DNA from: a virus
Length of the DNA: 64,000 nucleotides
Reading direction: 5' to 3' (one strand)
IMG/VR virus record: IMGVR_UViG_3300045988_122383
Span: 24,896-88,895 of that record
Part shown: piece after piece, positions 2,617 to 63,739 of the stretch
How the letters are laid out: the number at the start of each line of letters is the position of its first letter
How positions within the stretch are numbered: the stretch's first letter is position 1
Notes under the pieces: generated by a model
Told to the model about the DNA's origin: nothing
The model's database searches: none
Seen by the model: the letters and a program-made list of their open reading frames with translations, nothing else
Program-made: the position numbers and the translations under genes

Positions 2617-4890
2617 TTAATTTTTTAAGCTTAACCAGGTGCGCCTCTTATTATGATTTGTCATAATACATCTCTTAAACGCTTCTGGCTCTGCAAGGAG
2701 TGCAAATCTTTTCTTAGCTCGTGTCAACATTGTATATAACATACAGTTATCAAGCAATTTGTAATGTGTATTGTCAATAATACCGATCACAGTTTGCGCA
2801 GCTGATCCTTGAAGTTTATGCGTGGTTAATGCATATGCTAATTGCAGTTGTCCTAACTGAGCGAAAGAATATTCAATCAGCTTTTCTTCAATATTTGCAT
2901 TCATAGACACCAAACATATTTCTTTTTCTTTGTCAATCTCTGTAATGTATCCAATATCACCATTGAATACATCTCGCTCGTAATCATTTGAAGTCTGTAA
3001 TACCTTATCTCCTAAATAGTATTTACGATCTTTGAATTCAACAAATGGTTTGTTACTACTAGCAAATAATTCTTTCTGTACTGCTTTGTTCAATTCATCT
3101 GTGCTGTTCGTACAATTACTTCTTCGTGGAGAAATAATCACAACATTGTCAAGCCCTTCCTCTTTGACAGATTTGATATACTGCTTTACTGCCATATTGA
3201 ACAATGATTCTCTATTCTTCCTGAACAAATAAAACATATCATTTAGTTCACCATGAACAATTTTTAATTGTGGGCTATCCAATGGATTAATCCCTCTGCG
3301 AATCTTTCTTGCATCCGTTAAAATACCAGATTTTTCTGCTTGTCTCATCGGTTTGGTAAGCTGTACACTATTTAAACCTTTCTTTTTCAACAGATCCGAG
3401 AAAATATTACCAAATCCAATCGGTGGCAACTGCATATAGTCACCACAAAAAATTAATCGTGTTCCTGGTCGAATTGCCAATAAAAAATTATAGAAAAGGC
3501 TCGCATTTGTCATGCTACTTTCATCCATGATTACTACATCAGCAGGTAATGGGTTATCTTGGTTATAACAAAAACTATCAATACCTTCTGCTACAAGTAA
3601 CCTATGAATAGTCCGTGAGTCTAAGCCTGTTGCTTCTTTAATTCTTTGGGCTGCTTTTGCAGATAAAGCACACGCAACAATGCTATTATTTCTTTTTTGG
3701 TAGCATTTAATAATTGGTTTCAGAATTGTTGTTTTACCAGTTCCAGCTTCTCCAGAAATAAACACAACTTGGCAATTTAATGCTTTGTTAACTCCTGTAA
3801 TTTGTTCTTCTGAAAACATAAACCCTTCTTCATCTTCAACTTCAGAAATCGTCTGACTAATCTCACTATCTGTTATTGGTTCGTAATCTGTTGTATTTCC
3901 AAATGAATATTTCTCCATATCTTTAATAAATTCGTAAATATCCATTTCAATTTTATAATACGATTTCAGACCAATTTTATCTCCAGATGTATATAAATAA
4001 TTTGGTAATTTTTTATCTGATTCTTCATCAAACCATTCGTCAAATATAGGTAAGCATTCAGACGCTGCATTACTAATATTGCTTCTTAAATTTTTGATAT
4101 ACACATATGTATGTCCATCATTATCACCAACTTGATGCAAGTCGTAGGAAATAAATGCGTTTAACCGTTGATTTGAGCATCGCAATTCTGGTTTTAATTT
4201 GAGCGCAATATCATCAACTCGTTTAAAGCCCATGCCCTTTACCCTAGTTAGTATATATGGATTTTGTTCAATCTGTTTTTTTAAAACACTTGGATTAGGT
4301 TCGGATTTCAATAATCTTTCAATCGTTGGTAACGTAACCCCATATGGTTGCAACATTACAACAATATCAGAAATCACATAGTTTTTAATAATTTTATCTC
4401 TAAGCTTCTTCCAAGTTTTATCTCCTAGTCCTTTGATTTCTGAATGGTCAATCATCTCTAACTGACCATTCATTACATCTTCAACAACATTAGGATATTT
4501 CGCAATTAACTGATCTGCGATCACTGCGTTCGTCTGTGTTTTTAAAAATACCTTTTGTGCTTCAAAAGTTTTAGGAACTTCAGCAACTATAGAAAGTGGT
4601 TTATATTGGTATTCATTGTATTTCTTAGAATATGTCATATTGGCTTTAACCTTATATTTCGTTCCTAAATACAACTCCTGCATATTACCAACCAATTTGC
4701 CACATTTATTCATTTTTTTATCGGATAAGTCATCAAAATCATTATTATTATATGGTTTACATTCTGGTAAATCTTCTGCTGTACAGAATGTGTAAATCCC
4801 AAATAAAGATTCTTCATTATAATAAATCTGATATAATGGGACAATCTCAAACTCATATTCTTTTGTACTATCCACCACTTTAGGCGACAA
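2617..4890 (-). CDS. RecD-like SF1 DNA helicase with an N-terminal domain of unknown function.
   Basis: Walker A VFISGEAGTGKTT and Walker B VIMDESSM, plus a C-terminal RecD/TraA-like motif LAYALTTHKLQGSAAQTV. The ORF is 757 aa. Confidence 0.75.
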   Translation of the reverse strand: MSPKVVDSTKEYEFEIVPLYQIYYNEESLFGIYTFCTAEDLPECKPYNNNDFDDLSDKKMNKCGKLVGNMQELYLGTKYKVKANMTYSKKYNEYQYKPLSIVAEVPKTFEAQKVFLKTQTNAVIADQLIAKYPNVVEDVMNGQLEMIDHSEIKGLGDKTWKKLRDKIIKNYVISDIVVMLQPYGVTLPTIERLLKSEPNPSVLKKQIEQNPYILTRVKGMGFKRVDDIALKLKPELRCSNQRLNAFISYDLHQVGDNDGHTYVYIKNLRSNISNAASECLPIFDEWFDEESDKKLPNYLYTSGDKIGLKSYYKIEMDIYEFIKDMEKYSFGNTTDYEPITDSEISQTISEVEDEEGFMFSEEQITGVNKALNCQVVFISGEAGTGKTTILKPIIKCYQKRNNSIVACALSAKAAQRIKEATGLDSRTIHRLLVAEGIDSFCYNQDNPLPADVVIMDESSMTNASLFYNFLLAIRPGTRLIFCGDYMQLPPIGFGNIFSDLLKKKGLNSVQLTKPMRQAEKSGILTDARKIRRGINPLDSPQLKIVHGELNDMFYLFRKNRESLFNMAVKQYIKSVKEEGLDNVVIISPRRSNCTNSTDELNKAVQKELFASSNKPFVEFKDRKYYLGDKVLQTSNDYERDVFNGDIGYITEIDKEKEICLVSMNANIEEKLIEYSFAQLGQLQLAYALTTHKLQGSAAQTVIGIIDNTHYKLLDNCMLYTMLTRAKKRFALLAEPEAFKRCIMTNHNKRRTWLSLKN

Positions 4891-14577: not shown

Positions 14578-15690
14578 TTACCAAACATCGCCTTCAGTAT
14601 CATCTGAAGAATCATCAAAACCAGATCCCCATTCATCATCTGTAGAAGAACTACTTGTCTGTTTATCATCAGACTCACCGAAATCACTTCTTGCTGCTTC
14701 TGCCTTTTTAATAGCTTCAATCGCTGCATCAATTGCTTCTCTGGTGTATGTTTCTGAATCAATACTGTCTTTGCTTGCGCCAGTGATAATAAGTTCTTTT
14801 CTTGCAGAATTTACGACTCTCTTTGTAGGATCTGCTTCTCCCCATCCATCATCTTCTACTTCAACTTCTTCTGTCTGAATTTCTGTCTTAATATGTCCCC
14901 AAACTTCAATAGATGAATATGGCTTCACATTTTTCTTAAAAGTTTTTGCTAATTTCTTATTTGTCATATAGAATTCAGCGTCATCAACAGATGAATAACC
15001 AATAATCTTTCCATAAACGATAAAACGTCCTGTTGGCACATCATTTTCTTTTTCCTGTTCGATATTTGTGAATACCATTGTCTGTTTGAAATCAGATCTT
15101 ACTTTACGTTCTTCATCATCAAGATCAATTTCTTTACTTGTTAAACTAATCTGTGTTGGAGACATTCTTGACCACTGACGTTTAGTACCGTCTTCCCCAG
15201 TAAAACTTCCATATTCAATATCTCCTTTGATGAATACGCTCTGGTTGTCTGCCATATGTTCTGAAGTATATTTTGTTAAATCAAATGGATCTAAGACAAC
15301 TTTCTTATTAACAACCTGTCCTTTATCATTGGTCTCTTTTTCAAGACCTGCTCTTGAACCAATAATTGCCCAACCTTCGCCAAGTCCTAATTCTTCAGCC
15401 GATTTAAAACGATCCGCCCAAGGAATTTTTTTAGTTTTGTATGTACCGTCTTTCTCTCGTTTGATAAAACATACTGTAGGTTTTTCAAATGCCTGAATTT
15501 TACATCCAACTTTTACATCGGGTTCTACTTTAACTCCGAAAGATAACGTTCGTTTATCTTTGCCTTTCTGCGTTTTACCTTCCTTATAAAAGTCGTCTTT
15601 TGCACAATCAGTGATTAATCCTTCTAACTGAAATGTACCTTTAGTTTCTGGTAAGTTGAAAAGTCTTTTAGATTTTGTGTTTTCTGCCAA
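14578..15690 (-). CDS. Putative single-strand DNA-binding protein, inferred from its strongly acidic C-terminal tail.
   Basis: ORF of 370 aa that ends DDEWGSGFDDSSDDTEGDVW, an acidic tail with a hydrophobic tip of the SSB type. The gene order follows the AAA ATPase. The function is only inferred. Confidence 0.35.
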   Translation of the reverse strand: MAENTKSKRLFNLPETKGTFQLEGLITDCAKDDFYKEGKTQKGKDKRTLSFGVKVEPDVKVGCKIQAFEKPTVCFIKREKDGTYKTKKIPWADRFKSAEELGLGEGWAIIGSRAGLEKETNDKGQVVNKKVVLDPFDLTKYTSEHMADNQSVFIKGDIEYGSFTGEDGTKRQWSRMSPTQISLTSKEIDLDDEERKVRSDFKQTMVFTNIEQEKENDVPTGRFIVYGKIIGYSSVDDAEFYMTNKKLAKTFKKNVKPYSSIEVWGHIKTEIQTEEVEVEDDGWGEADPTKRVVNSARKELIITGASKDSIDSETYTREAIDAAIEAIKKAEAARSDFGESDDKQTSSSSTDDEWGSGFDDSSDDTEGDVW

Positions 15691-15899
15691 ATAAATTTAC
15701 CTCTTTCTGTTATTAAATTTGTTTAGTTAGTTTTTAGTTTGTAAATAAGTCATCAATTTATATCCACTGTCAACTCTGCCAAAGTCAACAGGAACAAAAA
15801 ATAATTTTATCTGATCGTCTTATATTGTTATAATCGTTCTAGCACGTTTATAACAAATGCGTCAAAAAAATAATAAAAGTTGTTTGCGTTATTCAACTT

Positions 15900-41219: not shown

Positions 41220-41414
41220 ATAATTCTCCTCTCTAATGTATCAATTTGTTACTTTACATTTTCACGGTATTGATATTCATCGACACTCAATACCTGCGTA
41301 CCCATCTCTAGTACCAAGACGGTACTGGAATTTATCTCCTTTCTAACATAATATTTACATTTTAATTTTGCACAAATGCCTGTGCGAGTCATTACATATA
41401 ATAAGGAAGAAACT

Positions 41415-42065
41415 CTACCCAATTATATTCTGGATAAGCTCATAATACTTTGTCCTGCCGACATACGACTTATGTTCTGCATCTTTTAATTCTTTCTTCA
41501 AAGTACATATATCTTTCTGATTATCCATGCAATTCTGCATCACTTCTATGTATCGAATACAATTCTTGATCTTTCTATGCAATTCTTGTAAGGTTTTAAG
41601 ATACCCAACAATCACTGCACGTTTCGCAGCATCAATCTTTTTAAACTCAATCGCATGAAGAATATCACTTCTGGCAGAATCGGCATATGATAATGCCTGT
41701 TCTAATTCAAACTTCTTTTCTCCTAATTGATCTGAGTCATATGCTAGAAGTCCTACTATAGCTCTTTCCTCAGTCTCTATATTGTCGATCAATGTATTAT
41801 CACATTCCCAATCCATAAAGCAATTTCCATTACCTTTACGCATTATTTCACTAGATTCCATAGGTTTTCCAACTTTACCTAGCTCAATTTCTCTGGCATG
41901 AAATCCGTCTTTCATCCACGTATATTTATGCTTCAAACCTAAAATGTGCTTTGCTTGCTTAGAGGTAAATTGAGTAGCTTCAGACTTACGATTATCACGA
42001 ACGTATTTATTTCTTGCATGATCTCTTTTCACATAGAACTCTCCATTCGTAATTATGTATTTCAT
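41415..42065 (-). CDS. Hypothetical protein.
   Basis: ORF of 216 aa. Confidence 0.45.
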   Translation of the reverse strand: MKYIITNGEFYVKRDHARNKYVRDNRKSEATQFTSKQAKHILGLKHKYTWMKDGFHAREIELGKVGKPMESSEIMRKGNGNCFMDWECDNTLIDNIETEERAIVGLLAYDSDQLGEKKFELEQALSYADSARSDILHAIEFKKIDAAKRAVIVGYLKTLQELHRKIKNCIRYIEVMQNCMDNQKDICTLKKELKDAEHKSYVGRTKYYELIQNIIG

Positions 42066-42111
42066 ACATCACTCCTGTATTTAATTGTAGTTTTTTGGAA
42101 AAATTTTCATG

Positions 42112-42140
42112 TTGACGAACATGTTTAGAATTGTTATAAT
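42112..42140 (+). promoter_or_regulatory. Near-consensus sigma-70 promoter on the plus strand: TTGACG, 17-nt spacer, TG-extended TATAAT.
   Basis: Read from the sequence. It lies in the intergenic region between two minus-strand genes and points away from any plus-strand ORF. Confidence 0.45.
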
Positions 42141-42146
42141 GATTTT

Positions 42147-42243
42147 AAGGATAATAATATCCTTATCTATTAAACAATTCTAAATATCAAATTCGATTTT
42201 CTATCGTGCTGCCAACACGGTAGATTCAAAAAATCTTTTTTTG
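42147..42243 (+). ncRNA. Candidate small RNA of about 95 nt transcribed from the orphan plus-strand promoter.
   Basis: The predicted start is followed by hairpin AAGGATA-ATAA-TATCCTT and hairpin TCTATCGTG-ctgccaa-CACGGTAGA, then ...AAAAAATCTTTTTTT. It contains no ATG. This is an inference only. Confidence 0.3.
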
Positions 42244-42258
42244 TTATCTATGATTTGT

Positions 42259-42624
42259 TTAGTTGAAATTTTTAGTTTGTGTGAAAGTAGAAGTTTTACC
42301 AAAGACTTCTGCTTTCTTTTTTATTGTCTGTATTTTTATTCCAACATTGTATCTCTCTTTGTATGTAAATTGCAGGCATTTGATTATGTCAAATATGTCG
42401 TCCTGCCTAATATGAGAGAACAAATTCTCATCTTGAATAAATTCGATCCAATGATATGAAAGATCTTTATCTTTGCCATAGATCTTCATCTTTCTATCAT
42501 CTGCTCGAATCTTATATTCACTCAGAAACCACGATGACATTTCTGATGAGTGTAAATCAAGTACATCAATATGCATTTGATTTGATTGATTCGCTACCAA
42601 TGTTTTTAATATTTGATTGTCCAT
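42259..42624 (-). CDS. Hypothetical protein.
   Basis: ORF of 121 aa; last gene of the operon that begins with the MazF-like gene. Confidence 0.45.
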   Translation of the reverse strand: MDNQILKTLVANQSNQMHIDVLDLHSSEMSSWFLSEYKIRADDRKMKIYGKDKDLSYHWIEFIQDENLFSHIRQDDIFDIIKCLQFTYKERYNVGIKIQTIKKKAEVFGKTSTFTQTKNFN

Positions 42625-42638
42625 ACATATACCTTCCT

Positions 42639-43667
42639 TTATTCTGTCATAATTTGATGTACACGATAATTCTTATAGTCCTCATCTTTATATAAATAAC
42701 CAATAGTTTTACCAATTACAGTTTGACGATCACTAAATTGTTTCTTTTTTAATCTATATGATATATAATAATTATAATAAAATTCAATTGCAATTTCACT
42801 AAATTGACGTGCGATTATAGATCGTGCGATTCCTTCTTTTGATTTAATATAATATAAATCTGCAATTGCCTTGATATCCATTTTAGATTTTAAATATTGT
42901 ATAAAACCAGAATTAATAACATCAATGGTTGTCAATTTCTCATAAGATAAAGTGTTACCAGTTAATTCTAATTGAGACTGCACATTGTTATATATCCTCT
43001 TTTGCTCTGCTTGATATTCTTCTATATTATTACATTTTTTTCGTGGTATTAATACAAAATCATCATATATATTCGTATCTCCCATTTTCAATTTATATTC
43101 ATTCAATGTCTCGATAAAATCTTTGGAGACTGGTTTCCCAAAAATTGTTAAATCATTTTGATTAATATCTGAGAATTTTAGATTTCTTAACTCCTTTCCA
43201 TTTATCCCATTATATAAACTCACAATATGAAATCTAGTATTCAATTTGGTATCGGCTGATGCATTGCACGACATCAGATTCGAAATAAACGCATTTATTT
43301 TATCTGGTGTAACATAATTAACATTAACTCTATTTGAAAAATATATATCAACTGCTAATTGCAAGTTTATAAATTTATCATTAACAAATGGATTATATTT
43401 AATGTAATTTTGTTCATATGCATAAGTATATAGTTTAACGAGCTGGTCATATCTTTTTTTAATAGAATTCATACTTTTGGTTTTTTTACCTCTAGTATCT
43501 GATAATATAGCCTCTTGGATTGTACCTGGTGCATACGTTAACCCAGATTCATTGTCGTCCGCAATATCAGAATCTAACAACCAATTCCATGTTGGGCGAC
43601 GTGATTCTGATACGTGAGAATCTATATAATTTTGTATCAATTCTTTATTATTCATAATATTCTCCAT
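42639..43667 (-). CDS. Hypothetical protein.
   Basis: ORF of 342 aa. Confidence 0.45.
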   Translation of the reverse strand: MENIMNNKELIQNYIDSHVSESRRPTWNWLLDSDIADDNESGLTYAPGTIQEAILSDTRGKKTKSMNSIKKRYDQLVKLYTYAYEQNYIKYNPFVNDKFINLQLAVDIYFSNRVNVNYVTPDKINAFISNLMSCNASADTKLNTRFHIVSLYNGINGKELRNLKFSDINQNDLTIFGKPVSKDFIETLNEYKLKMGDTNIYDDFVLIPRKKCNNIEEYQAEQKRIYNNVQSQLELTGNTLSYEKLTTIDVINSGFIQYLKSKMDIKAIADLYYIKSKEGIARSIIARQFSEIAIEFYYNYYISYRLKKKQFSDRQTVIGKTIGYLYKDEDYKNYRVHQIMTE

Positions 43668-43669
43668 TT

Positions 43670-44119
43670 CTAGGATGCCATTGCATTCATGTACGATAAC
43701 ATGCCGTTTTGTATTAAAATGCCATGTCCTATTTTTAACATTAAAGATAGATCAGATATTCTTCCCCAATACTCTAAAAGATTATTCTTTGGAATTGTTC
43801 TTCCTTGCTCTAAATACACCTGTGATACCATTTTTAATCCATTACTGGTATTTGGATAAATGGTTACATGTGTCGGTATCCAGTTCCTTAATTTTTTTGT
43901 AATTGGATACACGTTAATCTCTGTGCTCGTATTATTACAAATATTATTAGAATATACGATGACTGGTCTTTTCCCATGCAAGATATGACTACCTTCAATT
44001 TTCGGCAAATCTGCAAAATATATTCCCCAAACTTGAGGATTTTGATATTTGCCATATACATATTCTTTTCTTTTTCTGTTATCGTTTCCTTTTCTTTCTT
44101 TGTTAGTATATCCGTTCAT
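43670..44119 (-). CDS. MazF/PemK/EndoA-family endoribonuclease (toxin-like mRNA interferase).
   Basis: VWGIYFADLPKIEGSHILHGKRPVIVYSNN...VYPITKKLRNWIPTHVTI...SQVYLEQGRTIPKNNL aligns block-for-block with Bacillus EndoA (VYFADLSPVVGSEQGGVRPVLV...KLPTHVEI...LEQIRTIDK). The start was moved to ATG 44119, which has a GAGGGA ribosome-binding site. There is no upstream antitoxin ORF. Confidence 0.7.
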   Translation of the reverse strand: MNGYTNKERKGNDNRKRKEYVYGKYQNPQVWGIYFADLPKIEGSHILHGKRPVIVYSNNICNNTSTEINVYPITKKLRNWIPTHVTIYPNTSNGLKMVSQVYLEQGRTIPKNNLLEYWGRISDLSLMLKIGHGILIQNGMLSYMNAMAS

Positions 44120-44169
44120 TTTTACGTCCCTCAACTTTCCCCAGTTGCATTTTTTGTTTTCATGAATTA

Positions 44170-44207
44170 AATATACCATACTTTTTGCACCCTGTCAATA
44201 GGTGCAA
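44170..44207 (-). promoter_or_regulatory. Promoter-operator copy 2: -35 TTGACA, 17-nt spacer, -10 TATATT, with the -35 inside the same TTGCACC-N9-GGTGCAA palindrome.
   Basis: About 60 bp are near-identical to 2570..2628, including an A/T-rich block upstream of the -35. Confidence 0.5.
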
Positions 44208-44279
44208 GAAAGAAAGTTAATTTTTGTTGTGAACAAAGAATCTCTACATTTCTTATTATAATGCTACCATAGAACAAAA

Positions 44280-44600
44280 TCAAGATATTTTTCGAACAGA
44301 TGTTCTCTTTTTGTTCGAACACTTTACTTTGTGCTTACTTGGAAGGGGGAAATACTGTCTAACTTTATGAGGCTTATCCAGTTTCCATTTCTTTTCTTCA
44401 AAATCATAGTCACAAAAATCAAGCACTTCGTCCACACATCCATCATTATATTTGTAATCCACAATAACAGGATATGTTTTATACCTCATGTAACGTGATG
44501 CATTATCTGGTTTTAATGGTGGAATCTCTGCTGAAATCCACATAAGATTCTGGTTTGCTTTCTTTTCTTCCTTATTTTGTCTAATCGTATTTATCTTCAT
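44280..44600 (-). CDS. Hypothetical protein.
   Basis: ORF of 106 aa. Confidence 0.45.
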   Translation of the reverse strand: MKINTIRQNKEEKKANQNLMWISAEIPPLKPDNASRYMRYKTYPVIVDYKYNDGCVDEVLDFCDYDFEEKKWKLDKPHKVRQYFPLPSKHKVKCSNKKRTSVRKIS

Positions 44601-44611
44601 ACAAAATTCTC

Positions 44612-45358
44612 CTATAAAATCCTAATAATTTGTTCGTAAATTGCAATCGCATTATCTTCTGGAAAGTTCTGGTTCACATGCATATGCCCAAAGAACCATT
44701 TTTGATAAATCACTTTGTCTTTTATTTGCTGTAAATAATCCGTTAACTTGTCAGATTTGTACACTCCTGATCCTTGATCCATTTGTCTTAAAACAGATGT
44801 GTATGGACTATGTGTAATAACGTAATCTACTTGGAAGTCATTTTTCTCTAAATTCATCACACCTTCTGCCATCTCTTTATCAGATGGCAATTCTTCTTTC
44901 CACCAGCTCACATGATTAATCCTAAACATTTTGTCATAATCTCTGTACCATTCATTAATTCTTGGATCGTCTGGCTCTAAAATTCCATCTTGCACATCAT
45001 GGGAACTGGCACCGCCAAATGTAAAGAATTTCTTTCCTTGAATTTCAAACACCTGTCCACGCATAAGATGAAATACAGAGTCTTTGATCTTGTGAATCTT
45101 TCCGCCACACCATTTCTCTACAGGATATTGATATAAGCGGTCGTAATTTTCATGATTCCCACATACAAACAATGTAGTAAATGGCTTGTTATCTAACCAT
45201 TCCAGATTATATCGTTCTTCTTTTGTGTCATGCCACAGTCCAAAATCTCCGCAGATAATCACATAATCATCTTTGGTTAACTCAACTCCCTCTGGGAAAG
45301 AACGACTGTTTAATCGAGTCATCCAATCCCCATGTGTATCTCCTGTTACAAATATCAT
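44612..45358 (-). CDS. Calcineurin-like metallophosphoesterase.
   Basis: Motifs GDTHGD, GDFG and GNHE. Confidence 0.7.
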   Translation of the reverse strand: MIFVTGDTHGDWMTRLNSRSFPEGVELTKDDYVIICGDFGLWHDTKEERYNLEWLDNKPFTTLFVCGNHENYDRLYQYPVEKWCGGKIHKIKDSVFHLMRGQVFEIQGKKFFTFGGASSHDVQDGILEPDDPRINEWYRDYDKMFRINHVSWWKEELPSDKEMAEGVMNLEKNDFQVDYVITHSPYTSVLRQMDQGSGVYKSDKLTDYLQQIKDKVIYQKWFFGHMHVNQNFPEDNAIAIYEQIIRIL

Positions 45359-46305
45359 ACAATTACTCCTTCCAATAACTCTTCTAATGCCTGCATATTA
45401 TCTTCATGTACTCTATCATCTTGATCTGCATCATCTTTGCCAGTCTTATAAGCAAACTTGATAATCTCCATAACTCTATCATAACTCACATTAACAACAT
45501 TTTCCTTCAATCCGTTAAAAGCCCCACTGATAATTTCCTTGTATGTCTGCGCAATATCATCAAACAATACATGAGTTTCTTCCTCTGTGATTGTTGCATA
45601 CAGAAATGTCATTGCAGGGCTACTATGATTCAATAATCTCATAAGTGTATACAATACGTTCTGATCATCTTTATGATCGACAAGTGTCCAATACACAAAG
45701 TTCTTTCGTAATGTATGCGTACCAATATTGTCCTCAATTCCAACTGCTTTAGCACCTTTTTTAACAAAATCCAAAGCATTTGCTTCAGTCATGTGTCCTA
45801 ATCCAGACTTACATGTTCCAAAAACATAATCATCCATTGGCACTTCGCCATCAATCTTGACATCATATTTAGTTCCTGCAACAGCTTCAAAGAAAATATC
45901 CACTGCTTCAGTTACCAAATCGTTAAAGTATACCGTTCTGAATTTCTTTGTTTTCTTTTCCTGCTTACGAGTCTTATCGTCTAATAAATCGCCCCATTTG
46001 AGTCTGACGATATCAGAGATACGATATGCTGTATTGTTTCCAACTGCAACCAAAAGATTGTTTCTGGCAGCTACATATCGTTTGTACTCTGTGTACGATT
46101 TATCAATCTGGTCTCTAAAATATGCATTAAAGGCTGCAAATTTTTCTTTGTTCTTAATTGGATACACTAAAGATGATACGCCTTTTTGTTTATTAGATCG
46201 AGTCCATTTAGGATTTCCGTCCTTACGTCTTTTGATCTTTGCTTCAGGTTCTTCTGCGTTATTATTGTTTGCTGTTTTAATAACTTCAAATTGTGTTGCT
46301 GCCAT
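45355..46305 (-). CDS. Tyrosine site-specific recombinase (phage integrase/Xer family).
   Basis: Catalytic Arg (AYRISDIVRLKW), His-x-x-Arg (GTHTLRKNF) and a C-terminal LLNHSSPAMTFLY containing the catalytic Tyr. Confidence 0.7.
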   Translation of the reverse strand: MAATQFEVIKTANNNNAEEPEAKIKRRKDGNPKWTRSNKQKGVSSLVYPIKNKEKFAAFNAYFRDQIDKSYTEYKRYVAARNNLLVAVGNNTAYRISDIVRLKWGDLLDDKTRKQEKKTKKFRTVYFNDLVTEAVDIFFEAVAGTKYDVKIDGEVPMDDYVFGTCKSGLGHMTEANALDFVKKGAKAVGIEDNIGTHTLRKNFVYWTLVDHKDDQNVLYTLMRLLNHSSPAMTFLYATITEEETHVLFDDIAQTYKEIISGAFNGLKENVVNVSYDRVMEIIKFAYKTGKDDADQDDRVHEDNMQALEELLEGVIV

Positions 46306-51754: not shown

Positions 51755-51789
51755 TCTTCATCTTCCTTTCTAAACTGTCTTATTTTTCT

Positions 51790-51960
51790 CTACACTCATT
51801 ATTTTTGTATAACTGTATTCCGTAAACCAATAGGAATAAAATCAACATTTAATTCCAACTATTAGTGTGCCAATCCTAATAGAAACCTATTCTATTCCTA
51901 TTAGCTCTCTATGTATTAACACCCTATCCTATTAACAATTCTATGTCTAGTTAGTTATTA
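51790..51960. promoter_or_regulatory. Regulatory region upstream of the Bro-N gene, with inverted repeats CCAATAGGAATA / TATTCCTATTAG and CTAATAG-N-CTATTAG.
   Basis: Read from the sequence. The arrangement is operator-like. Confidence 0.35.
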
Positions 51961-51973
51961 GTTTGTATAATAA

Positions 51974-52054
51974 ATTTGACAAAGAACCGACCTGCCAAAT
52001 CGGTTCCTGTCAAATGTTTTCGCAAAATAAAAAGAACCTTCTGCTCGGTTCTTT
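51974..52054 (-). terminator. Two tandem rho-independent terminators.
   Basis: AAAGAACCGAGCAGAAGGTTCTTT followed by TTATTTTG, and GAACCGATTTGGCAGGTCGGTTC followed by TTTGTCAAATTT, both on the minus strand. Confidence 0.5.
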
Positions 52055-52074
52055 GCCAAAATTATTATATGGAA

Positions 52075-63180: not shown

Positions 63181-63739
63181 TAGATCCGTTCAATGTTAAG
63201 TTGTTAACTTCACATATAACAAATATATGAAGGTTTGCCAGTCGTACCCTTTACCCGTTATCCTATGATTGCGGTTTATTCCCTACTCTGCCACACGGCG
63301 ATTACTCATCACGTTTACACCTTTTTATGGTGCTTCTATGTATACCCTGGAAGCTTTACCCTCCGTTATCTAGGGTATACAATCCTATCATGATAAAGGA
63401 CTGAAATCATTCAATTTTTCGCCGTTCGTGGGAGATTGTCAAAAGAATTATTGACAATAAAGAATAATATCTGATATACTTTAGTTGCGAAGTAAAGGTA
63501 TATCTTATATCTTTAAAGGCTTGCTGGAATCATCACGACTTTAGCAAGTCTTTTTTCTTTGCCTAAATAACCTATATCATCATAGGTAATGTGTTAAATT
63601 GTATAATTGTTTATTTTTTATCATCTCCTTTTATAAAGCTTAATTTACAAGCTGTAAGTTAATTGAGATTTTAAAACTCTGCGGATCAATCAAGATCGTT
63701 TGTTTTACTACTCTTTTAACTTGTCTTTATTATATCATG

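Follow-up and report, generated by a model that had tools for sequence, protein, structure and literature searches.

Analysis of a 64,000-nucleotide stretch of phage DNA (hereafter the window, to which all coordinates refer) identified a genuine non-coding RNA gene on the plus strand from 42147 to about 42322, with a product of about 176 nt whose two ends are predicted from the sequence. This small RNA (sRNA) faces a minus-strand pemK/mazF-like operon encoding PemK, a 342-aa protein and a 121-aa protein, and we give a probability of roughly 0.55 to the reading that it acts as a cis-antisense regulator of this operon, by a mechanism that we infer from the arrangement of the locus.

The locus was compared with 47 distinct close relatives and with divergent metagenome loci whose flanking proteins are 58-78% identical. 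An initial annotation of this DNA had described a plus-strand promoter, TTGACG, a 17-nt spacer and a TG-extended TATAAT, opposite to every flanking gene. Both points were confirmed: the promoter is present at 42112-42140, the minus strand carries all plausible genes of the 64-kb window, whose GC skew is negative over its whole length. The promoter region contains the following elements:

42096-42108, plus strand: A/T tract TGGAAAAATTTTC, UP-element-like, near-invariant in the 47 distinct relatives and the divergent loci
42112-42117, plus strand: -35 hexamer TTGACG, of which TTGAC is kept in all relatives, including those with a flanking protein 58% identical
42121-42135, no strand assigned: left arm, ATGTTTAGAATTGTT, of a 15-nt inverted repeat, within the promoter spacer (partner at 42173-42187)
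42132-42140, plus strand: extended -10 element TGnTATAAT (TG at 42132-42133, TATAAT at 42135-42140), invariant in all relatives
42173-42187, no strand assigned: right arm of the inverted repeat, AACAATTCTAAATAT, overlapping the invariant block of the RNA

The hexamers match the consensus at 11 of 12 positions, and the arrangement TTGACG-17-TGnTATAAT is that of a sigma-70/sigma-A promoter with an extended -10 element. Such a match (11/12) is reached by only two plus-strand sites in the 64-kb window, and first-order Markov simulations gave an expected count of 0.04 per strand for sites that also have the 17-nt spacer and the TG. Across close and divergent relatives the hexamers and the TG are unchanged and the upstream A/T tract is nearly so; by function this tract would be an UP element. 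Transcription by the host RNA polymerase is predicted from this near-consensus promoter, with a start at about 42147 (A42147/A42148), directly at the 5' hairpin. The inverted repeat, which had not been described before, brackets the -10 element and the 5' hairpin; its core (TTAGAATTGTT / AACAATTCTAA) is invariant, and a change of T to A at 42124 is found without compensation. It is a candidate operator or, alternatively, a candidate hairpin of a minus-strand read-through RNA. A 16-mer of the locus, TTAGAATTGTTATAAT, was evaluated in an IMG/VR scan as a shared promoter element and was rejected, its matches outside the lineage having no common context, as is expected by chance in AT-rich DNA.

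Folding of the 180 nt downstream from the promoter gave a z-score of -7.7, and four stem-loops are found in the predicted RNA of about 176 nt. The parts of the RNA are:

42146-42165, plus strand: 5' stem-loop SL1, TAAGGATA-ATAA-TATCCTTA, obtained by folding and covariation, at the predicted start
42166-42199, plus strand: A/U-rich region with the block ACAAUUCUAAAUA (42174-42186), which is invariant in all sequences
42200-42224, plus strand: stem-loop SL2, TCTATCGTG-CTGCCAA-CACGGTAGA, with a 9-bp stem and an invariant loop CUGCCAA (42209-42215)
42225-42282, plus strand: U/G-rich linker with a weak A/U hairpin (42227-42243), crossing the stop codon (42259-42261) of a 121-aa ORF
42283-42322, plus strand: intrinsic terminator with a 15-bp stem (42283-42316), the loop ACCA and T6, inside the 3' end of the convergent ORF

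The two hairpins and the A6/T7 runs (42228-42242) reported in the initial annotation are present, and the RNA of about 95 nt deduced from them is unlikely: the T7 run (42236-42242) lies 11 nt past SL2 and is broken in relatives (TTTTGTTG in L186, TTGTTTATG in L347). Its alternative proposal, in which an antisense transcript enters the 42259-42624 gene from the 3' end, fits the data, since the only conserved plus-strand terminator, which had been overlooked, is located at 42283-42322, inside that ORF. On the plus strand a stable stem-loop is followed directly by a U-run, as in an intrinsic terminator; on the minus strand the terminator stem is followed by ACACAAAC, and the T-run exists on the plus strand only. 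The T6 is kept in all relatives but L347 and L348, which have T5.

The transcript does not appear to code for a protein. As had been stated, no ATG occurs in the first 100 nt or so: the first ATG past the predicted start is at 42250, after 103 ATG-free nucleotides; it is not preceded by a Shine-Dalgarno (SD) sequence, and in many haplotypes the substitution G42252T removes it. A search of the transcript for a small protein-coding gene, defined by a conserved ORF with its own start codon and SD sequence, found none. A 24-aa hydrophobic plus-strand ORF (42109-42183), considered as a type I toxin, was rejected on the grounds that it begins upstream from the transcription start; its apparent conservation is the conservation of the promoter.

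The stems of the RNA covary. In the 47 sequences, 97.8% of the cells were paired, compared with 44-53% when the partners were slid, and five pairs with changes on both sides were observed against 0.8 in shuffles (0 of 500 shuffles). RNAalifold recovered the same helices from diverse sets, with 7-10 compensatory pairs. Compensatory changes in homologues, the criterion for a structured non-coding RNA, are thus found at this locus. In SL1, which at the extreme 5' end of the RNA probably has a stabilising role, A-U is changed to G-C in 4 of 11 diverse sequences and U-A to U.G in L189; the loop is found in two orientations, ATAA and TTAT, and in L190 and L358 a longer 12-bp hairpin with one G.U pair occupies the position. 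Both-side changes were found at six of the nine pairs of SL2 (TCTGGTGTG...CACACCAGA in the L347 type), while its loop is invariant in all relatives, down to 58% identity of the flanking proteins. The linker is the least conserved part of the RNA. Between these elements, the A/U-rich region may pair with 42255-42263 as a long-range helix: RNAalifold placed a helix at 42169-42177 / 42255-42263, in which one change is compensatory and some cells are broken. A pairing of 42166-42167 with 42265-42266, suggested by the single-sequence fold, was rejected because the variants do not co-occur. In L190-type relatives CAATTCTA is present twice.

The G.U pairs indicate which strand is functional. Pairing in the terminator, which contains two U.G pairs, reaches 99.4% when it is read as plus-strand RNA and 86.8% when it is read as minus-strand RNA; for SL2, which has a U.G pair in most sequences, the corresponding values are 99.8% and 90.5%. 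One terminator pair goes from A-U to G.U in L190 and to G-C in L358-360. Since the G.U pairs, and the transitions that create them, fit the plus strand only, the functional strand is the plus strand. In L190 the stop codon of the ORF falls in the terminator loop, and the distal arm, although non-coding there, is still conserved; by this comparison, its retention is a constraint at the RNA level. All relatives come from one narrow phage lineage, so that the conservation in part reflects shared descent.

The convergent genes are arranged as follows:

42259-42624, minus strand: convergent ORF of 121 codons, hydrophilic product, last 64 nt overlapped by the sRNA
42639-44207, minus strand: upstream part of the presumed target operon, with its promoter, a PemK/MazF-like gene and an integrase-like gene

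The operon has a sigma-70-type promoter (44198-44170, minus strand) with a palindromic operator-like site (44207-44170). The PemK/MazF-like gene (43670-44179, minus strand, or starting at 44119) belongs to PF02452, and its product aligns with MazF at the catalytic Arg and Thr, both of which are retained. The 342-aa integrase-like gene (42639-43667, minus strand) matched an N-terminal SAM-like domain only, below threshold; with a second integrase-like gene at 45355-46305 there are two tyrosine-recombinase-like neighbours in all. For the 121-aa ORF no match was found in Pfam, PHROG, PADLOC, NCBIfam or PDB, nor any protein match among phages. The AlphaFold model of its product is poor (pLDDT 52), with a pLDDT under 50 in the C-terminal tail (residues 98-121). 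The DNA of the antisense terminator hairpin also encodes the tail of this protein. Defence-system and NCBIfam scans of the cassette were uninformative.

The MazF-containing operon had been thought to terminate in this gap, which did not hold: no minus-strand terminator-like site was found between the operon and the downstream 216-aa gene, and the gap has no minus-strand promoter either. In L015 a 450-bp insertion separates the sRNA promoter from the 216-aa gene, and the sRNA stays attached to the 121-aa gene.

The earlier proposal that the RNA regulates the MazF-containing operon is plausible from this geometry. Transcription is predicted to start at about 42147, 112 nt past the stop of the 121-aa ORF, and the RNA overlaps the ORF by 64 nt and is complementary to the 3' end of the operon mRNA, the reach of that mRNA being deduced from the missing terminator. 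An operon with its own promoter and no minus-strand terminator would yield an mRNA that continues across the gap and contains the full complement of the sRNA. The first contact would probably be a loop-loop kiss between CUGCCAA and the mirror-image loop UUGGCAG (a YUNR motif), and pairing could extend to a duplex of up to 176 bp, open to cutting by a double-strand RNase such as RNase III. After such a cut the operon mRNA might become unstable from its 3' end, lose its link to the 216-aa gene that follows, or suffer both effects, and head-on transcription from the convergent promoters might add interference. The overlap lies 1.4-2 kb from pemK, so that any effect on the toxin would be indirect.

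The arrangement is of the OOP type: the convergent promoter lies downstream from the presumed target gene, and the terminator falls within the 3' part of its coding sequence. Like lambda OOP, the sRNA is a short RNA with a constitutive, host-type promoter in the gap downstream from a convergent gene and a terminator hairpin in the 3' coding end of that gene. OOP is 77 nt long, against about 176 nt with four stem-loops here, and the two RNAs have no sequence relation. The target of OOP is a lysogeny regulator, whereas the predicted target here is an operon with a MazF/PemK homologue, in a phage with a Gram-positive-like host. OOP terminates inside cII with an overlap of 52 nt (PMC5869508), compared with 64 nt for the phage sRNA; according to references given in that paper, it is an antisense RNA and cleavage of its target mRNA is RNase III-dependent. 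The B. subtilis RNA SR4, of about 180 nt, also has four stem-loops, the last being the terminator. Its first contact with bsrG mRNA is made by loops that have YUNR motifs, and pairing at the 3' end of that mRNA leads to RNase III-dependent decay (PMC3834814). SR4/bsrG of SP-beta and RatA/txpA are B. subtilis prophage systems in which the antitoxin sRNA overlaps the 3' end of its target; SR4 is convergent and of similar size, and the present phage shares SP-beta-like genes such as YorF. In contrast to both systems, the overlapped gene here encodes a hydrophilic 121-aa protein, is the last of a three-gene operon and is not a hydrophobic peptide under 60 aa, and the toxin homologue is a type II-style MazF/PemK endoribonuclease 1.4 kb away.

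A toxin-antitoxin-like RNA, as first suggested, was not borne out by the defining features that were examined. No type I toxin peptide (about 20-60 aa, hydrophobic) is encoded under the RNA, where the minus-strand ORFs are the 121-aa ORF and a 33-aa ORF that is basic, has a TTG start and is unconserved; nor were type III tandem repeats found in 41400-44700. ToxI/ToxN (type III) is similar in that an RNA stands beside an endoribonuclease toxin in a mobile element; here the RNA is on the opposite strand and 1.4 kb downstream from the toxin, not directly upstream, and the toxin is PemK/MazF (PF02452), not ToxN.

The Rfam comparison recommended in the initial annotation was performed with Rfam 15, phage RNA families included. 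No match at gathering score was found in the whole window, and for the region searched at E up to 10 the best scores were 10-18 bits against thresholds of 50-100. ARAGORN found nothing, and the sRNA locus was matched in none of the GenBank phages, PLSDB plasmids and 185,579 representative genomes searched.

A purely cis-antisense RNA could vary in its unpaired sequence, and the fact that ACAAUUCUAAAUA and the SL2 loop do not vary may point to a trans target, to a protein partner or to a site that acts in the DNA. The same RNA could have its main role in trans, pairing with phage mRNA leaders and blocking translation, with the overlap of the 121-aa gene being incidental; we regard this as possible, though clearly less probable than the cis-antisense reading. 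The chief candidate target may be the YorF-like (SSB-like) gene of the replication module (14578-15690), an SP-beta-like gene (PF27337), followed by the leader of a Bro-N/Ant-like gene (51922-51966). The first site is:

15684-15742, minus strand: 5'UTR, SD sequence (GAAAGAGG) and TTG start of the YorF-like 370-aa gene, a candidate trans target found by alignment

The top match of the sRNA on both strands of the window is antisense to this leader (15701-15742; 46 nt, 80%, E = 5.8e-5) and covers the SD sequence, the complementary sRNA positions being 42235-42280. An equal alignment score against any translation start region was reached by 3 of 1000 natural plus-strand segments, one of which overlaps the sRNA itself. 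In addition, the SL2 loop CUGCCAA is complementary at all seven positions to UUGGCAG (the TTG start and the next 4 nt), colinear with the long pairing block, and UUGGCAG and the SD sequence are retained in the leaders of YorF-like homologues at 86% and 72% identity. Invariant unpaired blocks are also what is expected of a trans-acting seed. Other measures did not distinguish the site, which was singled out by alignment alone: the RNAduplex energy was ordinary, being equalled by 47 of 240 natural segments and marginal against shuffled sRNA, and the sense strand of the window has 11 copies of TTGGCAG. The pairing block lies in the linker, where conservation is lowest, and may be taken up by an internal helix of the RNA. 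In 32 relatives (IMG/VR) the YorF-like site is invariant while the sRNA block varies, so that no covariation supports the pairing. The divergent sRNAs L347, L351 and L186 had no good complementarity to the leader variants compared, in a comparison of unmatched genomes; leaders L344 and L345 could not be assigned to the genomes of the divergent sRNAs, and cross-comparisons were inconsistent.

The leader motif ACAAACTAAWAACTAACTARAC occurs again at 51945-51966, followed by sequence resembling the minus strand of the sRNA locus. This could support a second target, but the similarity between sRNA and leader may also be mere duplicated leader sequence. The gap at 51755-52074 was considered as a paralogous sRNA gene and rejected: it has no plus-strand promoter or terminator and shares the leader motif alone. 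P22 sar and P1/P7 C4 are small constitutive phage RNAs that pair with leaders or ribosome-binding sites of phage regulatory genes, and the Bro-N/Ant-like leader gives the present locus a likeness to them. The sar RNA lies opposite the ant ribosome-binding site, which is a different layout, and the link to an anti-repressor here consists in the shared leader motif only.

It is unlikely, but conceivable, that the RNA is a dual regulator, a cis-acting RNA antitoxin that would trigger decay of the MazF/PemK operon from its 3' end and at the same time block the SD sequence and start of the YorF-like gene in trans through the SL2 loop and the linker.

The hairpins could instead belong to a minus-strand mRNA, as a 3'UTR or as an element for processing or stability between the cistrons of the 121-aa and 216-aa proteins, with the promoter a chance look-alike. 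The minus-strand fold of the whole gap has a z-score of -4.6, the arms of the 15-nt inverted repeat can pair with each other in DNA or in minus-strand RNA but not in the sRNA (the left arm being upstream from the plus-strand start), and a gap with neither minus-strand promoter nor terminator makes a read-through RNA likely. Against this, the G.U pairs of the terminator and SL2 become A.C mismatches on the minus strand, and the substitutions seen create G.U and are never A.C-compatible. Nor is there any minus-strand reason for an invariant -35 element, TG, -10 element and A/T tract; the placement of the T-run and the uncompensated change at 42124 point the same way. We therefore consider this explanation quite improbable.

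Slightly weaker still is the case for a DNA-level site, in which nested palindromes at about 42108-42187 would form a repressor operator or a recombination or cruciform site of a recombinase. The palindromes comprise CATGTT-GACG-AACATG over the -35 element, the 15-nt inverted repeat and the 8-4-8 hairpin, whose loop in both orientations favours such a site; the promoter spacer is invariant, more than a promoter alone demands, and integrase-like genes are located nearby (42639-43667 and 45355-46305). The 12-mer TTTAGAATTGTT, allowing one mismatch, occurs 10 times against 1.9 expected, equally on both strands, but the enrichment of its 11-mer version is marginal (11 against 4.9 expected, a number reached by 1 of 100 shuffles), and the sequence was rejected as a dispersed protein-binding motif. 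A DNA-level site fails to explain SL2, the terminator and their covariation, all of which lie outside the palindromes. In L190-type relatives the arms of the inverted repeat are about 74 nt apart instead of 37 nt, and the sub-threshold, N-terminal domain match of the 342-aa protein weakens the recombinase version. An operator on the sRNA promoter, for its part, would agree with the cis-antisense model rather than compete with it.

The reading of SL2 as a mimic of a CRISPR repeat, either an RNA anti-CRISPR or a solitary repeat unit titrating host Cas proteins, started as a lead from the resemblance of AUUUUCUAUCGUG...CACGGUAGAU to what we take to be the Cas12a repeat, AAUUUCUAC-loop-GUAGAU (handle UUUCUA...UAGAU). 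RNA anti-CRISPRs are, according to PMC10651486, a known phage strategy, but here this reading is largely refuted: the UCUA/UAGA ends are not conserved (GUUA/UAAC in the L190 type; stem UCUGGUGUG/CACACCAGA in the L347 type), the SL2 pattern occurs in IMG/VR in this phage lineage only, once per contig, and among 185,579 representative genomes of bacteria and archaea none contains the pattern TATCGTRCTGCCAAYACGRTA, in a CRISPR array or elsewhere, although the repeat of the host may lie outside this set.

The sRNA is thus most likely a fresh example of a familiar kind of phage antisense regulator, found in a gut phage. The sRNAs of gut Firmicutes phages are almost unexplored, and the comparative evidence is unusually clean for this one, with an invariant promoter, covarying stems, strand-specific G.U pairs and exact predicted ends. 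At this locus, an RNA signal of one strand has also shaped the coding sequence of the other. If the cis-antisense reading is true, an operon containing MazF/PemK would be under antisense control in a phage; if the trans lead is true, an sRNA would be tied to the phage replication module; and a dual regulator would be a type I / type II toxin-antitoxin hybrid, tying toxin control to the replication decision. Adding the family to RNA libraries would improve the annotation of gut phages of about 160 kb.

The phage to which the window belongs is approximately 160 kb long and has been recovered from human-gut metagenomes only. Contigs of IMG/VR and ENA/Logan match it with 93-100% identity, no DNA match was found among GenBank phages, and comparison of one conserved protein gave large Bacillus phages and Clostridioides pCD1602_4 as the nearest cultured relatives, with no more than 57% identity. 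The minus strand carries all plausible genes of the window and the GC skew is negative throughout. Two features of the region analyzed here are:

42066-42258: the gap flagged in the initial annotation, between the minus-strand 121-aa ORF (42259-42624) and the 216-aa ORF (41415-42065)
44198-44170, minus strand: near-consensus promoter of the pemK-342-121 gene group

Two genes lie upstream of the 121-aa ORF, a 342-aa integrase-like ORF and a homologue of PemK/MazF (PF02452, E = 2e-15); the latter keeps the catalytic Arg and Thr when aligned with solved MazF structures. The whole group falls in a G+C dip (0.28 versus about 0.34). The gene order is constant in relatives: integrase, (phosphoesterase), 106 aa, PemK, ~340 aa, ~121 aa, gap, ~216 aa. 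For the 342-aa protein (42639-43667, minus strand) the matches were to an N-terminal SAM-like domain, below threshold, and to part of PHROG 1; on visual inspection, GINGKEL seems to stand in place of the usual catalytic Arg motif, and the protein may be an inactive, DNA-binding derivative. Two minus-strand promoters share an identical 23-bp palindrome, TTGCACCCTGTCAATAGGTGCAA, which overlaps their -35; the copy at 44185-44207 precedes the PemK operon and that at 2585-2607 a 3D-domain peptidase-like gene (1901-2563). The flanks are similar over about 50 bp, and the element appears to be a shared operator/promoter.

The plus-strand promoter, hairpins and A6/T7 runs listed for the gap in the initial annotation were all found where it had placed them. 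On the plus strand, only two sites in 64 kb reach 11 or more of 12 matches, and the promoter, TTGACG-17-TGnTATAAT, is one of them; 0.04 sites of that kind with TG and a 17-nt spacer are expected per strand. Two structures had been missed: the strongest terminator-like structure of the neighbourhood, a plus-strand 15-bp stem (42283-42316) followed by TTTTTT and located within the 3'-terminal 64 nt of the 121-aa ORF, and a 15-nt inverted repeat (42121-42135 / 42173-42187) flanking the -10 and the 5' hairpin on both sides. From the predicted start (A42147/A42148) to the T-run the RNA would be approximately 176 nt long; the segment 42146-42325 folds far better than its shuffles (z = -7.7). Of the two alternatives in the initial annotation, an antisense transcript reaching into the 3' end of the 121-aa gene agrees with these findings; the other, an RNA of ~95 nt, is unlikely because the T7 run lies 11 nt beyond hairpin 2 (42200-42224) and is interrupted in relatives. 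The first 103 nt contain no ATG; the first one to follow lacks an SD and is missing in many haplotypes. Judged from its sequence, the locus is a genuine gene for a small non-coding RNA on the plus strand. It converges on the pemK-342-121 operon, whose 3' end it overlaps.

One arm of this promoter's inverted repeat, the 12-mer TTTAGAATTGTT, was counted 10 times in the window (at most one mismatch) versus 1.9 expected, equally on both strands; with an 11-mer version the excess was only marginal. A second candidate plus-strand small RNA was seen at 63451-63560, with a TTGACA-18-TATACT promoter carrying TG (63451-63480) and an RNA of ~70 nt with two hairpins (fold z = -5.8), the second being a 13-bp terminator with T6 (~63516-63555). 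It lies in about 1 kb without long ORFs, where two 12/12 minus-strand promoters (63758, 63886) are also found. At 30238-30376 (minus strand) the Rfam tRNA model scored 43.8 bits, with both acceptor/T-arm ends intact and a 76-nt insertion in the middle; ARAGORN called no tRNA there, and the match could represent a tRNA gene that contains an intron or has been disrupted.

Homologous regions were gathered from 52 IMG/VR contigs, 34 metagenome contigs and divergent loci (L186-L190, L347-L351 and L358-L360), the latter found via homologues of the 121-aa protein (58-78% identity). In 47 distinct sequences and the divergent loci, the -35 (TTGAC), TG, TATAAT, the A/T tract upstream of the -35, the block ACAATTCTAAATA, the loop CTGCCAA and the terminator T-run are invariant or nearly so. 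The arms of hairpin 2, UCUAUCGUG/CACGGUAGA, become GUUAUCGUA/UACGGUAAC in the L190 type and UCUGGUGUG/CACACCAGA in the L347 type, with both-sided changes at 6 of the 9 pairs. The 5' hairpin shows an A-U to G-C covariation and gives way, in the L190 type, to a 12-bp hairpin in the same position; one terminator pair passes from A-U through G.U to G-C across relatives. Among the 47 sequences, 97.8% of the pairing cells were paired, versus 44-53% with slid partners, and five double-change pairs were counted versus 0.8 in shuffles (0/500). Independent RNAalifold runs on diverse subsets agreed on the four stem-loops, in which 7-10 pairs were compensatory, and added a possible long-range helix (42169-42177 / 42255-42263).

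The 5'-hairpin loop (42154-42157, alignment A3) reads ATAA in about one third of haplotypes and its reverse complement TTAT in about two thirds, with one intermediate (L302); this looks like a short-palindrome flip-flop or two point changes. In one relative (L015:3532-3990, contig IMGVR_UViG_3300045988_110202) an insertion of ~450 bp separates the sRNA promoter from the 216-aa gene, and L358-L360 have a different one of ~350 bp at the same place; the junction appears to be a gene-gain hot spot.

A CRISPR-repeat mimic was rejected because the Cas12a-like ends vary and no array in 185,579 representative genomes contains the motif. Assignment of the hairpins to a minus-strand RNA element is argued against by strand-specific pairs: U.G occurs at several stem positions and G.U arises through several substitutions, and the minus-strand equivalents would be A.C mismatches. 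Pairing reaches 99.4% on the plus strand versus 86.8% on the minus strand for the terminator, and 99.8% versus 90.5% for hairpin 2; a U-run follows the terminator stem on the plus strand only. In L190 the ORF stops in the terminator loop (...KKKAEVL*) and the distal arm, non-coding there, is still conserved; the constraint is therefore on RNA, not protein. The 121-aa protein gave a poor model with a low-confidence C-terminal tail, which would be consistent with such constraint. A DNA-level operator or recombination site would account for the nesting of palindromes and for the invariance of the promoter spacer, and an operator acting on the sRNA promoter is quite plausible, but hairpin 2 and the terminator are left unexplained.

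No minus-strand terminator was found 3' of the 121-aa gene; transcripts from the operon promoter should therefore cross the gap, with full complementarity to the sRNA. The pemK-342-121 mRNA, made from its own promoter, would read through the gap and pair with the sRNA, the invariant hairpin-2 loop making the first, kissing-loop contact, a role it fits because the mirror-image target loop UUGGCAG carries a YUNR motif. Pairing may lead to decay of the operon mRNA from its 3' end, to its uncoupling from the 216-aa gene, or both, and the convergent host-type promoters may add mutual interference. The geometry is that of lambda OOP, with its promoter just beyond cII, its terminator inside cII and a 52-nt overlap (PMC5869508). 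The convergent 3' overlap is also shared with the SP-beta antitoxin SR4, an RNA of ~180 nt with four stem-loops which pairs at the 3' end; its YUNR-motif loops make first contact and RNase III-dependent decay is triggered (PMC3834814). This geometry and the fit of the hairpin-2 loop therefore favour cis-antisense control of the pemK-342-121 operon mRNA as the putative function.

Pairing in trans with the leader of the YorF-like gene is improbable as the main function, at roughly one chance in four. The best match of the sRNA in the whole window (15701-15742, antisense; 46 nt, 80%, E = 5.8e-5) covers the 5'UTR and SD of this SSB-like gene of the replication module. The TTG start of the gene together with the next four bases, UUGGCAG, is perfectly complementary to the invariant hairpin-2 loop, in colinear order. 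Only 3 of 1000 natural plus-strand segments matched any start region equally well, one being the sRNA itself and the other two a duplicated promoter. However, the duplex energy is unremarkable, the target is invariant and so provides no covariation, and divergent sRNAs showed no consistent match to the available divergent leaders. The leader motif ACAAACTAAWAACTAACTARAC (15721-15742) recurs at 51945-51966 (both minus strand) upstream of a Bro-N/Ant-like gene, in both cases just downstream of a putative promoter. At the second site the sequence that follows is similar to the sRNA locus, and the match may thus be left over from a duplication. A third, interrupted copy lies under the sRNA (42253-42280, minus strand). 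The second-best match (3914-3957, plus strand; 45 nt, 80%, E = 7e-4) involves the 5' single-stranded region of the sRNA and lies inside the coding region of a 757-aa gene (2617-4890).

The sRNA matched no Rfam family; the hairpin-2 signature occurs within IMG/VR only in this phage lineage and does not occur in 185,579 representative genomes, and PLSDB plasmids gave no match to the complete sRNA region. The suggestion of a toxin-antitoxin-like RNA failed on the testable defining features: a small hydrophobic toxin ORF, the mark of type I, and tandem repeats, the mark of type III, are both lacking. The cis-antisense candidate represents a new family of a kind already known, convergent antisense sRNAs of phages, and would gain in interest if its connection with the MazF/PemK operon or with the replication gene could be shown.
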